Of a DNA stretch of 64,000 nucleotides, positions 25,998-49,569 are shown one piece after another. The notes below the pieces were generated by a model. The model was not told the DNA's origin. It did not search any database and saw only the letters and a program-made list of their open reading frames with translations. The stretch comes from Spirochaetaceae bacterium. GTDB taxonomy: Bacteria > Spirochaetota > Spirochaetia > DSM-27196 > SKKC01. A program made the translations under genes and the position numbers. The stretch is taken from the NCBI GenBank assembly GCA_046542845.1, contig JBKHAN010000002.1:15396-79395 (forward strand). Reading direction: 5' to 3'. How positions within the stretch are numbered: the stretch's first letter is position 1; each line of letters starts with the position of its first letter.

Positions 25998-27437
25998 TCA
26001 CACGTCGCGTCGTGTCACACGCGGTCCGTCGGCACTATCGACTATAGCGTAACCCATTTCAAGTACCTCGTCCCGGATTTCGTCTGCGCGGGCGAAGTCA
26101 CGCCGCTCACGGGCGCTCTGTCGCTCTTCGACAAGACGAAAAACCTCGTCGGGCACTGAGGATGTCGTCGCAGGTTGAACCGTATCCAGACCAAGTCCAA
26201 GAACGGCGTCCATCTGTACAATCGCAGAACAGCCCTCTGCGGGAGTCACATCGCGGTCCTTCAACAATCCCCAGACGCGCGAGAGCGCGCGCGGGGTGTT
26301 CAGATCATCCTCCAGGTCGGAACGAAAATCGGACAGGTAGACTGCCACCGGCGATGTCGCCGGTATCTCCATGTTCATGATCCGGTCCCGGTCGGCATCC
26401 GCCGCAACCGCGTCCATGAGCTTCTGAACCTGAGACACGACCCTGCGACGCGCTGCGCGTGCCGCATCGAGCGCTTCAAATGAAAACCGAAGCTCACTGC
26501 GATAGTGGGCGAGCAGGCAGAAGTACCGGTAGTCCAGAGGATCGTATCCCTTCTCGGTCAGCGTATCGAGCGTCAGGAACTCCCCGGCGCTCTTTGACAT
26601 TTTTCCCTTGTCCATGACAAGGAACTCGTTATGAAGCCAGTATTTCACGTACTGCTTCCCGGTCGCAGCTTCTGCCTGGGCGATTTCGTTCGTATGATGC
26701 ACGGGTATGTGGTCGACGCCCCCGCAGTGTATGTCAAGCTGCTCTCCGAGGTATTTCATACTCATGGCACTGCATTCGATATGCCATCCCGGGTAGCCCC
26801 TGCCCCACGGTGAATCCCAGACCATAGCCTGGTTTTCGAACTTGCTTCGGGTGAACCACAACACGAAATCACCGGGGTTGCGCTTGTTTGCATCGACGGC
26901 AACGCGAGCGCCTGCTTTCAGGGTCGACAAGTCGAGCCCCGCCAGTTCCCCGTAGCGCGGAAAGCGGGAGATATCGTAATACACGTTCCCGCCTGAAACG
27001 TAGGTATATCCTTTCACCTCAAGCCGCTCAATGAGCTGTATCATGTCCTGTATATGCCCGGTGGCACGAGGAGCGTGGTGCGGAGGCAGTATGTTGAGCC
27101 GCCTGGTGTGCTCGAAAAAGGCGTCGGTATATAACGCGGCAATGTCCCAGACGCTTCTGCCGCTTTCCCGTGAGCGCCGCACAAGCTTGTCTTCGCCGTG
27201 GTCCCCATCGTCGCTGAGGTGACCCACGTCGGTGATGTTCATGACGTGGTTCACGCCATAACCGAGATACTCAAGCGTCCGTCGTAATACGTCGACGAAC
27301 ACGTATGCGCGCAGATTCCCTATATGAGCGTAGTTGTAGACGGTGGGCCCGCAGGAGTACAGCCGTACCGACGACGGATCGAGAGGCTCGAAATCCTCAG
27401 TTGTACGACCGAGCGTGTTGTGAAGTTTAAGACTCAT
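25998..27437 (-). CDS. cysS: Cysteine--tRNA ligase (canonical copy)
   Basis: CGPTVYNYAHIGNLR (HIGH motif), NITDVGHLSDDGDHGEDK, PWGRGYPGWHIECSAM, HCGGVDHIPVHHTNEIAQ, and KMSKS in DKGKMSKSAGEF. It has a full-length C-terminal anticodon-binding extension. Confidence 0.96.
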   Translation of the reverse strand: MSLKLHNTLGRTTEDFEPLDPSSVRLYSCGPTVYNYAHIGNLRAYVFVDVLRRTLEYLGYGVNHVMNITDVGHLSDDGDHGEDKLVRRSRESGRSVWDIAALYTDAFFEHTRRLNILPPHHAPRATGHIQDMIQLIERLEVKGYTYVSGGNVYYDISRFPRYGELAGLDLSTLKAGARVAVDANKRNPGDFVLWFTRSKFENQAMVWDSPWGRGYPGWHIECSAMSMKYLGEQLDIHCGGVDHIPVHHTNEIAQAEAATGKQYVKYWLHNEFLVMDKGKMSKSAGEFLTLDTLTEKGYDPLDYRYFCLLAHYRSELRFSFEALDAARAARRRVVSQVQKLMDAVAADADRDRIMNMEIPATSPVAVYLSDFRSDLEDDLNTPRALSRVWGLLKDRDVTPAEGCSAIVQMDAVLGLGLDTVQPATTSSVPDEVFRLVEERQSARERRDFARADEIRDEVLEMGYAIVDSADGPRVTRRDV

Positions 27438-45800: not shown

Positions 45801-46445
45801 TTACTCCGTGAGATAGCGCAGATACCAGTCAATCGCATGCGCGGCGACCTGGGCAAGCGCACCTTCCTCTTCAAAAAGATGTGATGCATCGGGAACAATG
45901 CGTAGATCTTTCGGCCCGTTCAGCTGCTCCATCGCCCGCTCGTTATACTGCCGAATCTGATAATCGAACCCGCCGACGACGAGCAGGCTTGGAACCCGAA
46001 TGCGCTTCAGGTCGCTGAGCACGAGATCCGGTCTGCCCCCGCGGCTGACCACGGCCTTCACGTCAGGCTTGCCCGTCGTTATGACCTTGAATGCCGCGGC
46101 ACTTCCGGTGCTCGATCCGAAATAGCCAACAGGCAGCTTCGAAGCCCAATCCTGGGCTCGTACCCAGTCGGTCGTCTCCGACAGTCTCCCGGCCATGAGG
46201 CCAATATCGAAGCGATTGTCAGGATCTTCGTCTTCTTCGGCGGTCAGAAGGTCGAAGAGCAGTGATCCGATGCCGGCGTCCGAGAGCTGTTGCGCCACAA
46301 AACGGTTACGCGGACTCATGCGACTCGACCCGGTTCCGTGCGAAAAAATCACAAGGCCAACTGCACTGTCCGGCAGATAGAGACTACCCGGGAGACGGAC
46401 ATTCGGAAGCGATATTTCCAGATCCCGAGACGATTCGTCGCTCAT
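45801..46445 (-). CDS. Alpha/beta hydrolase (dienelactone-hydrolase-like)
   Basis: VIFSHGTGSS..., nucleophile elbow GSSTG, C-terminal ...PDASHLFEE. Its stop is 3 nt from the ppc start. Confidence 0.8.
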   Translation of the reverse strand: MSDESSRDLEISLPNVRLPGSLYLPDSAVGLVIFSHGTGSSRMSPRNRFVAQQLSDAGIGSLLFDLLTAEEDEDPDNRFDIGLMAGRLSETTDWVRAQDWASKLPVGYFGSSTGSAAAFKVITTGKPDVKAVVSRGGRPDLVLSDLKRIRVPSLLVVGGFDYQIRQYNERAMEQLNGPKDLRIVPDASHLFEEEGALAQVAAHAIDWYLRYLTE

Positions 46446-47083
46446 GCCTTGAGATCCGTCGACTGTATGTACCCGACGTTTCGCTCCTGCATGCTTCGGC
46501 GCGCGGTCTGTACGGACCCCTGCGGAATATCCACGCCCCGGGTGCAGTCGGCGATTACAAAGGTCTCGAAGCCGCAGCCCACCGAATCCTCAGCGGAGAA
46601 GCGAACACAGAAATCCTCTGCGAGACCCGCGATGTACACCTTCTGTATCCCGAGTCCCCTCAGATAACCCTCAAGCCCCGTAGGGGTCGTATGGTCGTTT
46701 TCGAAGAACGCGGAATAGCTGTCAAGCTCTGCCGACGTTCCTTTGTGCAGAATCAGGTTAACAGGTTTCCGATCGAGGTCCGGGTGGAAATCGGCTCCGG
46801 GGGTCCCCTGAACACAGTGCACGGGCCACAATTGCTGCTGTATGCCGTTGTACGTAACGGTATCCCCGGGGGTGCCGCCGGGGTGCGCCTCCGCGAAACT
46901 CACATGCCCCGAAGGGTGCCAGTCACGAGTAGCAACGACAAGCGGAAAACGGTGCATGAGAGAGTTGATACGCGGAATGATCGTGTCTCCATAGTCCACT
47001 GCAAGAGACCCCCCCGGGCAGAAGTCGTTCTGAACATCAATAATCAGGAGGACAGAGTCTGTCCGGTCAATCCGTTCTTTCAT
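46442..47083 (-). CDS. pncA: Nicotinamidase/pyrazinamidase (isochorismatase family)
   Basis: LLIIDVQNDFCPGGSLAV, ATRDWHP..H, and the catalytic-Cys context IAGLAEDFCVRFSAED. Confidence 0.88.
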   Translation of the reverse strand: MKERIDRTDSVLLIIDVQNDFCPGGSLAVDYGDTIIPRINSLMHRFPLVVATRDWHPSGHVSFAEAHPGGTPGDTVTYNGIQQQLWPVHCVQGTPGADFHPDLDRKPVNLILHKGTSAELDSYSAFFENDHTTPTGLEGYLRGLGIQKVYIAGLAEDFCVRFSAEDSVGCGFETFVIADCTRGVDIPQGSVQTARRSMQERNVGYIQSTDLKA

Positions 47084-47175
47084 GGAATGAGACTACTAAT
47101 TATCCCGGGTACTGAAAAGACCGACCCGTACACGCGTACCATCCACCGTCAGGAAGCTGCTTCATGGTGTTCGCT

Positions 47176-48456
47176 TTATCCGAGTATCTGCAGGACTTCG
47201 TCCATGTTCCTCAGGCTTTGTGCGATGTGGCGCCGCGTGGTGTCGTCGAGTGACGCCGGCGAGAGTCTCGCGAGCACCGCGTTCACCGAATCAATCGCGC
47301 GACCGGCCGACAGGTCGTCGTTCATTCCCTCTTCGAACGCGCTGCTAAGCTGCGTCGCCGGGTGCTCAGGCGGAAGTTCCGGCAGGTCACCGGGCTCATC
47401 GGGAAGACGCTCGGCCTGCACAACGTCGTTGATGCGTGCGCGCAGGGTGTCAAGGAAGGCGGCGGTGCTTTTCATAGCCTCGGCGGTAAAGTTCATGCGC
47501 GAGCGATAATGAACCGACATGAGCATGTATCGCAGGTGTCGCGGCTCGTATCCCGCGTCGATCAGGTGCTCCGGATAGGTAACGTTACCCGCGCTTTTGC
47601 TCATGACTTCGCCGTCTATATACAGGTGTTCCCCGTGAAGAAAATAGCGTGCGAAATCCTTCCCGGTGTACGCTTCCATAACGGCAATATTATAGTCGTG
47701 GTGCCGGTACAGATTATCGATACCACCGCACTGTATGTCGATCTGGTCCCCCAGATTTTCGATGATCATGGCGGGGTCCTGAATGTTCCAGCCCGGTCTC
47801 CCGCGTCCGATGACGGTGTCCCAGGACGATCCCTCCGGCATTACCCCACCCCGATGTTCGGGATGCCAGAGTACAAAATCGCCGAGGTTCCATCGACGCC
47901 CCTCGTAGGTATCGAAGCCGAACCGTACACTTCGTTTCGGCATGCGGCGTGTATCGAGGCCATACAGGCGGCCGAAATTTTTCACGCTCACCGGCCGAAA
48001 ATAGTATTTCCCGTCGTGCTCGTACGCAAAGCCGTCGGCGACGAGTTTCTGTATCATCCTGACGGCGGTTTCAACCGACTCGGTTGCCCGCGGAATCTTC
48101 TCCGGGAGCTTGAGCTTCAGGAGTGCGGTCTCGTCGAAAAAGTGATCCTGCACCGAACCGGTAATCGCCTGTATGCTTTCGCCCGCTCCCGCTGCTTCGG
48201 AGACGGTCTTGTCCTCGACGTCGGTAAAATTGATGACCCGGTGCACCGTATACCCCAGGTACTCAAGATAGCGCACCAGAAGGTCTTCGTAGGTAAAGCT
48301 GCGGTAGTTTCCGATATGCGGTCGACGATAGGTCGACGGACCACAGGTGAATATTCGCACCGTGCCTGCTTCCCGGGGCCGAAACAGTTCTTTTTTTCGA
48401 CCGAGCGTATTGGTAAGGGTGAGGCATTCTCGCGTGCTTTGCATAGAGCACAGCAT
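47176..48456 (-). CDS. Divergent CysRS-like class I aminoacyl-tRNA-synthetase paralog (426 aa) with altered zinc/cysteine-site residues
   Basis: It retains CGPSTYRRPHIGN and NFTDVEDK. Where cysS has GWHIECS, HHTNE and KMSKS, the paralog reads GWNIQDP, HHDYN and VMSKS. It is shorter than the canonical copy at 25998-27437. Confidence 0.85.
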   Translation of the reverse strand: MLCSMQSTRECLTLTNTLGRKKELFRPREAGTVRIFTCGPSTYRRPHIGNYRSFTYEDLLVRYLEYLGYTVHRVINFTDVEDKTVSEAAGAGESIQAITGSVQDHFFDETALLKLKLPEKIPRATESVETAVRMIQKLVADGFAYEHDGKYYFRPVSVKNFGRLYGLDTRRMPKRSVRFGFDTYEGRRWNLGDFVLWHPEHRGGVMPEGSSWDTVIGRGRPGWNIQDPAMIIENLGDQIDIQCGGIDNLYRHHDYNIAVMEAYTGKDFARYFLHGEHLYIDGEVMSKSAGNVTYPEHLIDAGYEPRHLRYMLMSVHYRSRMNFTAEAMKSTAAFLDTLRARINDVVQAERLPDEPGDLPELPPEHPATQLSSAFEEGMNDDLSAGRAIDSVNAVLARLSPASLDDTTRRHIAQSLRNMDEVLQILG

Positions 48457-48477
48457 ACTGAAGCGCTTGGTAAACGT

Positions 48478-49569
48478 CTACGGCGCGGGTGGTGCGTCGC
48501 GTTCGCGGCGATGCTCGGGCATAAGGCTCGCGCGCATTCGCGGGAGGTGATCCGGATATGTCCGGGCGGCCCAGGTAATCAGGCCTTCACGTACGTTACA
48601 GCGAAGATCCCAGAGCGACGGAGCATCCGCAGCGCTCACCAGTGCGCGGAGCTCCATGCACCAGGTCTGCGCCTCGGTGACCTGCACAATACCCACACGA
48701 CCATCCCACAAGCTTTCTTTACTCAGAATACGGGTCAGTTCCAAGCGCACCTCATTGACCGGGACATCGTAGTCCACATACAGGAATACCGTGCCGATAA
48801 GCTCGCTCGTTACGCGGGTCCAGTTCTGAAAGGGTTTCTCCAGGAAGTAACTGCACGGCAGGACCATTCGTCGCTGATCCCATATCCGCAACACGACATA
48901 GGTTATCGTGATCTCCTCGACCTTACCCCACTCGCCTTCGGCGATCAGGACGTCGTCGAGGCGAATCGGTTGCGTAATGGCAAGCTGCAGCCCACTGAGA
49001 ATAAGACCGAGCGATCGCTGCGCCGCGAGTCCTATTATGATCCCGGCTACACCCGCTCCGGCGAGGAGCGTCGCTCCGACCTGCCGAACCGGTTCAAAAC
49101 TCAACAAGCCCATTGATATCCCGAGCAGGAGGACGACGACGATCCCAATCTGGCGAATCACGCGGACCTGCGTATGGACCTTCCGTGCTTTGAGATTGTC
49201 CCGCACGGCGAACGGATTCTTGTGCGAGACGTAGGCTTCCAGAACGTAGAACTGGTTTGCGCACAGCCAGGTTACCAGTGTGACAAAGAGGAGCGACACC
49301 AGATGTTCGAGCAGCTCCATGTGCGCATCCGGCAGCTCAAGCAGAGGAATCGCAGCTGAAACTGCAATCAGCGGCAGAAACCAAATCGCCGGACGCCCCA
49401 CGTAGCGCACCAGAATCGCTGCAAGCGGCTTGTCGGCACCGGCAAACACCCGCCCGACAACGTAGCGGACGAGAAGGGAAAGGAAGACCGCGGCAGTCGC
49501 GATCAATGTAAGCACGGCCCAGGGTCCTAAAACCTCGAACACGTCTTCCACGATCGCTACCGGGGTCAC
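48478..49569 (-). CDS. Mechanosensitive ion channel family protein (MscS-like, larger paralog)
   Basis: Several N-terminal TM helices followed by LQLAITQPIRLDDVLIAEGEWGKVEEITITYVVLRIWDQRRMVLP. The start overlaps the M16 peptidase stop by 4 nt. Confidence 0.88.
   Translation of the reverse strand: MTPVAIVEDVFEVLGPWAVLTLIATAAVFLSLLVRYVVGRVFAGADKPLAAILVRYVGRPAIWFLPLIAVSAAIPLLELPDAHMELLEHLVSLLFVTLVTWLCANQFYVLEAYVSHKNPFAVRDNLKARKVHTQVRVIRQIGIVVVLLLGISMGLLSFEPVRQVGATLLAGAGVAGIIIGLAAQRSLGLILSGLQLAITQPIRLDDVLIAEGEWGKVEEITITYVVLRIWDQRRMVLPCSYFLEKPFQNWTRVTSELIGTVFLYVDYDVPVNEVRLELTRILSKESLWDGRVGIVQVTEAQTWCMELRALVSAADAPSLWDLRCNVREGLITWAARTYPDHLPRMRASLMPEHRRERDAPPAP

Follow-up and report, generated by a model that had tools for sequence, protein, structure and literature searches.

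A rare lineage of cysteinyl-tRNA synthetase paralogs with a rebuilt zinc pocket in anaerobic spirochaetes and sulfate reducers

Cysteinyl-tRNA synthetase (CysRS) is the textbook case of metal-based amino acid selection, in which a zinc-thiolate bond makes an editing domain unnecessary. Selection of cysteine by zinc is confirmed generally in the literature, with the metal bound by two conserved cysteines. Here, we analyze the gene of a CysRS-like paralog (47176-48456, reverse strand) in a 64,000-nucleotide stretch of a Spirochaetaceae bacterium genome (assembly GCA_046542845.1, contig JBKHAN010000002.1, positions 15,396 to 79,395), hereafter the window, which also carries a canonical cysS. A preliminary description made from the sequence alone had presented the paralog as a second CysRS-like gene with a dismantled zinc and cysteine recognition site.

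RESULTS

The window encodes a canonical CysRS and a shorter paralog

The paralog open reading frame (ORF) specifies 426 amino acids; public gene calls place its start 4 codons later, which gives a product of 422 residues (P0001). Pfam assigns residues 26-331 to the class I (C) catalytic domain tRNA-synt_1e (PF01406, 247 bits). This match, the ORF itself, and 35% identity over 425 residues to the product of the window's canonical cysS (25998-27437, reverse strand, 479 aa) bear out the presence of a second CysRS-like gene. The canonical protein has intact zinc ligands, contains both DALR_2 and CysS_C, and scores 461 bits on the cysS model TIGR00435, above the cut-off of 340. The two genes are the only ones with PF01406 in the whole genome (3.15 Mb, 91% complete).

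A Pfam scan of the paralog returned no match to DALR_2 or CysS_C (PF23493), in agreement with the shorter C-terminal region noticed earlier. The alignment of the paralog covers model positions 1-401 of 466. It scores 283 bits on TIGR00435, below the cut-off, 266 bits on NF011108 (cut-off, 780) and 183 bits on the MshC model TIGR03447 (cut-off, 485), i.e., it stays below every curated NCBIfam cut-off. The last score upholds the initial view that the protein is not an MshC. Its public names are "cysteinyl-tRNA synthetase" at the Joint Genome Institute (JGI) and "class I tRNA ligase family protein" at NCBI; of these, the JGI name is probably wrong for the paralog and would inflate CysRS counts.

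AlphaFold2 prediction from the single sequence was unusable (predicted local distance difference test [pLDDT], 41), and the model built with the family alignment reached a pLDDT of 90.6 and a predicted template modeling score (pTM) of 0.91. The best Foldseek matches of the latter model in the PDB were the CysRS structures 8qhp, 1li5, and 1u0b (template modeling [TM] score of ~0.8), with MshC (8hfn, 3c8z) slightly behind, followed by MetRS.

The predicted side-chain end of the amino acid pocket is rebuilt

To derive residue equivalences, we aligned the paralog to E. coli CysRS (1li5) with HMMER and used a MAFFT alignment of 120 members; all motifs discussed below lie on the reverse strand, and the coordinates given for them in the preliminary description translate as it had stated. 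The zinc ligands of E. coli CysRS reportedly are C28, C209, H234, and E238. Alignment to 1li5 confirmed that two of these four positions are changed in the paralog. C28 corresponds to C38 (48343-48345), which is invariant in the family, and H234 to H252, while C209 is replaced by D227 and E238 by N256. At the four positions, the alignment thus returned C, D, H, and N, i.e., not all four ligands are conserved, against C, C, H, and E in all canonical sequences inspected.

The replacements extend to the surrounding motifs. WNIQDP (47773-47790) lies opposite E. coli W205-H-I-E-C209-S (GWHIECS), with W205 kept as W223, H206 replaced by N224, and E208 by Q226. HHDYN (47689-47703) lies opposite H234-H-E-N-E238 (HHENE), where H235 is kept as H253, and E236 and N237 become D254 and Y255, respectively. 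DIQCGG (47722-47739), opposite E. coli DIHGGG, had been listed as a further departure from canonical enzymes. This is correct for the His (E. coli H224, paralog Q242), which is invariant in canonical CysRS and Asn or Gln in the paralog family, but not for the Cys of DIxCGG, which is also found in the window's canonical cysS.

The motifs for ATP and amino acid backbone binding present a different picture. The HIGH-type ATP motif follows a family-specific Arg-Pro (R45-P46-H-I-G-N, 48307-48324); R45 and P46 are invariant in the paralog family and variable in canonical CysRS, whereas HIGN itself (48307-48318) is not unusual, being present in the window's own cysS and in 71 of 84 canonical CysRSs. 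In the KMSKS-type loop VMSKS (47593-47607), E. coli K266 is replaced by V284 and K269 is kept as K287; family members carry P, T, K, V, or A at the first position and an invariant second Lys. E. coli T68 is retained as T78. Besides K287 of MSKS, residues H47, G49, N50, T78, D79, W223, and the GG-D are invariant throughout the family. The residues predicted to contact ATP and the alpha-amino and carboxyl backbone of an L-amino acid (HIGN, GG-D, the MSKS Lys, Thr78, Gly39, and Trp223) are therefore kept. The side-chain end of the predicted pocket, in contrast, is rebuilt: Cys/Cys/His/Glu has become Cys/Asp/His/Asn, and His206/Glu208/Asn237 has become Asn/Gln/Tyr. These altered residues are far from chance, as they are kept in more than 120 members.

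Aspartate is a competent and common metal ligand. "Remodeled" thus describes this site better than "dismantled", because two of the ligands are still in place and an Asp can coordinate metal; moreover, Cys28 and His234 are invariant, and the replacements around them are fixed and conserved. The same invariance bears on the earlier suggestion of a regulatory pseudo-synthetase. A non-catalytic role in regulation or scaffolding would fit the altered zinc site and the loss of the first Lys of KMSKS in most members, but the ATP-site and amino acid backbone residues listed above are invariant, and the second half of the Rossmann fold is the most conserved domain of the paralog (entropy, 0.79 bits). 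We therefore regard a pseudo-synthetase as quite improbable. Conservation compared domain by domain did not discriminate between a tRNA and a small molecule as the acceptor.

An Asp at the Cys209 position is also present, within GWH[VI]EDT, in two otherwise canonical-looking sequences, P0144 (858 aa) and P0202 (462 aa), the former with HHTNE retained. Asp at this ligand position has thus arisen more than once.

The connective peptide 1 (CP1) loop of the paralog, MPKRSVRFGFDTYEGRRWNLGDF (47875-47943), is basic and highly conserved. Its family consensus is W-P-K-x-K-V-R-F-K-K-D-T-Y-x-G-x-R-W-N-L-G-D-F, with P173, D182, T183, Y184, G186, W189, N190, G192, D193, and F194 as family invariants. In CysRS, this loop reads the acceptor stem's first base pair (PMC5389517).

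Natural occurrence of Asp at position 209 recalls another activity of the CysRS scaffold. E. coli CysRS variants C209D and C28D lose translation activity and keep persulfide synthesis (PMC10655014), so the paralog might act as a dedicated cysteine persulfide synthase (CPERS), a pyridoxal phosphate (PLP)-dependent activity, with aminoacylation lost. This reaction requires the four lysines K73, K76, K266, and K269 (PMC10655014), of which K73 and K269 alone are conserved in the family; the K76 position is E, V, S, Q, or A and the K266 position P, T, K, V, or A. Strict conservation of HIGN and the ATP site would also be needless for a reaction that uses neither ATP nor tRNA, which renders this function very unlikely.

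The paralogs form a single clade under purifying selection

A search of 5.8 billion proteins yielded more than 4,000 CysRS-like matches, the best 120 of which are 49 to 78% identical to the paralog. All of these 120 have RHHDY[NTS] and x-MSKS or a variant close to it, and in nearly all, CGPS[TIV]Y-x-x-PH[IVL]GN and DI-x-CGG-x-D are present as well. A 51-sequence family alignment contains 79 invariant columns, including the altered pocket residues other than N224, Q226, and N256, which are conserved at ≥90%. In an exhaustive HMMER pass over 1.84 billion representatives at 50% identity, sequences fell into two motif classes with a handful of exceptions, W-N-[IV]-Q-D plus HHDY[NT] versus G-W-H-x-E-C plus HH-x-N-E. 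Scores on the family hidden Markov model (HMM) are likewise bimodal, with paralogs at 608 to 651 bits and canonical enzymes at ≤405.

The phylogeny proposed as a check in the preliminary description (IQ-TREE, 64 sequences, LG+C20+F+G4) resolved the paralog family as one distinct clade with 100/100 support; the stem measures 0.9 substitutions per site. The metagenomic protein P0155 branches as its sister (support, 96/88), and a search for relatives of P0155 recovered ordinary CysRSs only, at ~40% identity. Together, the clade, P0155, and two short CysRSs of DPANN archaea are separated from every other CysRS at 100/98 support. Since these sister sequences lack the anticodon domain and keep the zinc ligands, the domain was lost first and the zinc site was rewritten on the family's own stem. 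A tight clade with essentially invariant altered residues argues that the paralog is not a decaying copy. Catalytic and backbone residues and altered pocket residues are equally invariant across 51 to 125 members, which indicates purifying selection on the new active site. The family is thus a conserved, rare, and patchily distributed CysRS-derived lineage that retains the full CysRS fold under strong purifying selection. We found no description of it in the literature searched.

The family HMM detected the paralog in 7 of 201 sampled Spirochaetota species, all seven with a canonical copy as well. In the phylum to which a paralog-bearing Syntrophobacter genome (G207) belongs, 7 of 301 species have it; about 2-3% of Spirochaetota and Thermodesulfobacteriota species carry the paralog. 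Pattern scans of 185,579 species genomes recovered 162 to 372 relatives, almost all in metagenome-assembled genomes (MAGs), from Spirochaetaceae, Syntrophobacteraceae, Desulfobacterales, Desulfobulbales, Desulfarculales, Desulfohalobiaceae, and one Nitrospiraceae. Two hosts are cultured, Salinispira pacifica (WP_455383462.1) and Desulfurivibrio sp. C05AmB (L140).

Among 21 deltaproteobacterial genomes with the paralog, 19 contain a third type of CysRS-like gene, with open frames of ~740 to 890 aa. The three that we inspected (L087:4414-6744, forward strand, in G221; L088:4461-6740, reverse strand, in G211; and L089:4281-6677, forward strand, in G207) combine a PLP domain of the cysteine synthase type (PALP) with a full-length CysRS module that includes DALR_2 and, in one of them, also CysS_C. 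Their signature motifs are degenerate, with ANLGH, RLHPGE, or LLTLQE for HIGH and KMSQD or KKLDLN for KMSKS, and the L089 fusion has lost its zinc ligands as well (TGPP, WHIAAA). By their motifs, these fusions look like pseudo-synthetases joined to CysK/CysM.

Gene neighborhoods, RNAs, and the selenium question

In the window, an MscS-family channel gene (48478-49569, reverse strand) lies 21 bp upstream of the paralog and overlaps the gene of a PreP-type M16 peptidase; the MscS-family gene and the paralog are probably cotranscribed. Downstream on the same strand follow an isochorismatase/PncA-like gene (46442-47083), a dienelactone-hydrolase-like gene, and ppc, and within this array we detected no convincing promoter or terminator. 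The codirectional position between an MscS-family gene and pncA noted earlier is therefore real, but it is common only to two relatives, L001 and L019, whose paralogs are 75-76% identical, and is thus uninformative on function. Long forward-strand antisense ORFs (47362-49116, 584 aa, and 46262-47509, 415 aa) overlap the paralog, MscS-family, and pncA-like genes; antisense ORFs cluster across loci only as the shadow of the real gene, as is typical of G+C-rich DNA, and do not merit annotation.

Neither all-against-all clustering of ORFs from 81 loci nor a tally of Pfam domains in 141 flanking genes revealed a family-wide neighbor. Synteny is restricted to sub-clades, with CNNM/CorC in Syntrophobacterales and DHO_dh and Gfo/Idh/MocA in some spirochaetes. 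A class V aminotransferase of the cysteine desulfurase/selenocysteine lyase-like type (582 aa, L091:6659-8407, forward strand), encoded directly after a divergent member (GCA_963992685.1), was considered as a partner and rejected, as it has no homologue at other loci. Rfam searches found no riboswitch or T-box leader in the window or in 11 loci, and the window's genome contains no dedicated tRNA. A 99-nt "tRNA-Phe(AAA)" called by ARAGORN outside the window (contig C56:65162-65260) has an implausible length and anticodon and is probably a false positive.

These searches bear on a further possibility, that the paralog is the CysRS* of a selC*/selB* system, which charges a tRNA(Sec)-like tRNA(Cys), or has another selenium-linked function. 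The lack of an anticodon domain, the apparently altered CP1, and the occurrence in Syntrophobacterales and Desulfobacterales match the description of CysRS* (PMC5389517), and 12 of the first 14 paralog-bearing genomes (6 of 7 in the spirochaete subset, P = 0.003) encode a selenocysteine (Sec)-containing SelD, against a baseline of 58 of 201 in the phylum sample. This association was gone after 39 more paralog-bearing genomes, L001 and L019 among them, only 8 of which encode SelD. In pooled spirochaetes, SelD is present in 12 of 44 genomes with the paralog and 52 of 194 without (Fisher's exact test, P = 1.0). No tRNA or SelB-type GTPase motif adjoins the gene in ~150 loci, no tRNA was found in the window, and the window's genome, 91% complete, contains one ordinary tRNA-Cys(GCA) with G1, as opposed to the UCA anticodon and A1:U72 of a selC* tRNA(Cys), no tRNA-Sec-like gene above the Rfam threshold, and no SelD. 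A selC*-like tRNA-Cys does occur in one paralog-bearing spirochaete (G108, L256:1505-1589, contig C49:7268-7356). This 85-nt tRNA has a GCA anticodon and what looks like U73, reaches 66 bits against the Rfam tRNA-Sec model, and lies between FdhA-like molybdopterin oxidoreductase and HdrA-like genes; selC* tRNA(Cys) has been reported from Firmicutes, Thermodesulfobacteria, Nitrospirae, and Proteobacteria, not from spirochaetes (Mukai 2017, PMC5389517). Taken together, a CysRS* or other selenium-linked role is largely refuted.

DISCUSSION

Our analysis suggests, with a probability of roughly 0.55, that the paralog is a catalytically competent class I adenylate-forming ligase, descended from a short CysRS lineage without an anticodon domain, whose substrate recognition has changed. 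Such an enzyme would have abandoned the canonical zinc-thiolate selection of cysteine and would form an aminoacyl-AMP either with a different substrate or with cysteine via a different metal site. The aminoacyl group would then pass to an acceptor recognized without an anticodon, and the enzyme would act beside the housekeeping CysRS rather than replace it. The basic, invariant CP1 loop and the Arg-Pro that precedes HIGN hint that the acceptor is anionic; it would be a tRNA acceptor end, which we somewhat favor, or, in the manner of MshC-type ligases, a phosphorylated small molecule. The translation activity of E. coli CysRS falls greatly with the single change C209D (PMC10655014, reporting Akaike 2017), which supports the loss of canonical zinc selection in the paralog.

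Several observations weigh against this interpretation. Retention of Cys28 and His234, together with an Asp that can ligate zinc, makes cysteine activation by a Cys/Asp/His site possible. A few otherwise canonical-looking CysRS-like sequences, P0144 and P0202, share the Asp at 209. No conserved neighbor, riboswitch, or dedicated tRNA in the loci and the genome searched points to a pathway, and the substrate, metal, and acceptor named here are all putative. Finally, 17 of the 21 paralog-bearing deltaproteobacterial genomes yielded a canonical cysS, and in the other four, all MAGs, the paralog could suffice; MAG incompleteness explains the missing genes equally well.

The first of these points leads to the strongest competitor, a paralog that still activates cysteine. 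It might be a second CysRS that reads the acceptor stem only and holds zinc or Fe(II) in a Cys/Asp/His(/Asn) site, or an MshC-like ligase for a low-molecular-weight thiol. The metal-site form would suit sulfidic, zinc-poor anoxic habitats, and record titles place the hosts among anaerobes of sediments and soda lakes; the family is, however, found in only 2-3% of the species of these same anoxic lineages. Invariance of Cys38, His252, Trp223, and Thr78 and the general ability of Asp to ligate metal are consistent with cysteine activation, as are the domain architecture, which is that of MshC, and the nearest relatives, short DPANN proteins annotated as CysRS that likewise have no anticodon domain. 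The strong impairment of E. coli C209D in translation (PMC10655014) argues against it. So do the replacements Glu238 to Asn, His206 to Asn, Glu208 to Gln, and His224 to Asn or Gln, at positions that do not vary in the canonical CysRSs examined, a set for which these motifs were themselves part of the selection. In described Zur-regulated CysRS paralogs, the zinc ligands are intact (PMC2770081), and the flanking-gene tally showed no zinc-uptake, COG0523, or glycosyltransferase/deacetylase neighbors. On balance, we consider continued cysteine activation possible but unlikely.

Within the favored interpretation of a ligase with changed substrate recognition, a bolder version is tentative. The family may constitute a new class I aminoacyl-adenylate-forming enzyme that dispenses with zinc-thiolate recognition and activates another amino acid, from within or outside the proteinogenic set, for transfer to the acceptor stem of a tRNA or to a new small molecule. 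With Cys, Asp, His, Asn, and Tyr, the predicted pocket would be polar and would suit a hydrogen-bond-donating or positively charged side chain. More speculatively, Cys38, His252, and Asp227/Asn256 might, without metal, form a thiol-based catalytic triad that acts on substrate bound in the pocket.

Replacement of half of the CysRS zinc site, with the adenylation machinery kept, beside a normal CysRS and in two bacterial phyla, makes this paralog family a natural experiment in the rewriting of synthetase specificity. It points to a probable new enzymatic activity in anaerobic spirochaetes and in sulfate reducers or syntrophs, with a product that might be, e.g., a new aminoacylated tRNA or a new metabolite. 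If true, the different-amino-acid reading would establish a synthetase-like specificity not known before, a discovery similar in kind to those of MshC, GluQRS, or PoxA. The cultured hosts S. pacifica and Desulfurivibrio sp. C05AmB make direct testing feasible.

Comparison with known CysRS types delimits what is new. With canonical CysRS (E. coli CysS, 1LI5/1U0B), the paralog shares the fold, the domain order through the helical bundle, the HIGH- and KMSKS-type motifs, Cys28, Thr68, Trp205, and His234. It differs in Cys209 to Asp, Glu238 to Asn, His206 to Asn, Glu208 to Gln, His224 to Gln or Asn, and Asn237 to Tyr, in the missing C-terminal anticodon-binding domain, which some archaeal CysRSs lack as well, in a rewritten CP1, and in a score below the equivalog cut-off. 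Its nearest relatives in the tree, P0155 and the short DPANN CysRSs (Ca. Ainarchaeum MDD5317817.1 and Micrarchaeia MEM3399896.1), resemble it in length (~410 aa), in the lack of an anticodon-binding domain, and in a CGPSxY..PHIGN-type N-terminal motif, but keep the canonical zinc ligands in GW(H/S)IEC and HH(E/D)NE.

MshC (TIGR03447; 3C8Z, 8HFM) is likewise a CysRS paralog of ~410 aa without an anticodon-binding domain that exists beside a true CysRS; it has the same domain architecture and matches the paralog model with a TM score of ~0.78. The zinc site of MshC is said to be retained as Cys/Cys/His, the second Cys of which would correspond to Asp in the paralog. On TIGR03447, the paralog (183 bits) does not come nearer to MshC than does the genuine cysS of the window (200 bits). 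The hosts also differ, Spirochaetota and Thermodesulfobacteriota versus Actinobacteria, and mycothiol-type glycosyltransferase or deacetylase genes are not among the recurrent paralog neighbors, msh genes not having been searched genome-wide.

MshC had been taken as the known CysRS paralogs, but the literature names two, MshC and CysRS* (PMC9437257), the latter also published with a gene arrangement (PMC5389517) that we looked for at the paralog loci and did not find. The cysS* gene lies downstream of selC*-selB* in some Desulfobacterales (Mukai 2017, PMC5389517), and its product, described as cysteine charging, has no anticodon domain, carries PTVS instead of MSGA in CP1, and is inactive in E. 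coli as the native protein (PMC5389517). Our paralog is similarly a second bacterial CysRS-like protein without an anticodon-binding domain, with an apparently changed CP1 and overlapping host orders; description and gene context, rather than sequence alignment, set the two apart. Aligned with KAGA of the window's canonical cysS, its CP1 reads PKRS (family consensus, WPKxKVRF), and D. biacutus was not among the matches of a scan that started from a Desulfococcaceae member.

Zur-regulated CysRS paralogs, which cluster with COG0523, znuABC, or zur and have intact zinc ligands (Haas 2009, PMC2770081), differ from the paralog, whose ligands are changed and beside which no zinc-homeostasis genes were seen. 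GluQRS/YadB and other truncated synthetase paralogs provide the broader precedent of a catalytic core that works without an anticodon domain beside the housekeeping enzyme and serves a new acceptor (PMC9437257). YadB belongs to another synthetase family and keeps its amino acid specificity, whereas the amino acid site of our paralog is changed. Synthetase paralogs put to new uses are thus a known kind, and what is new is this CysRS-derived family with its rebuilt zinc pocket.

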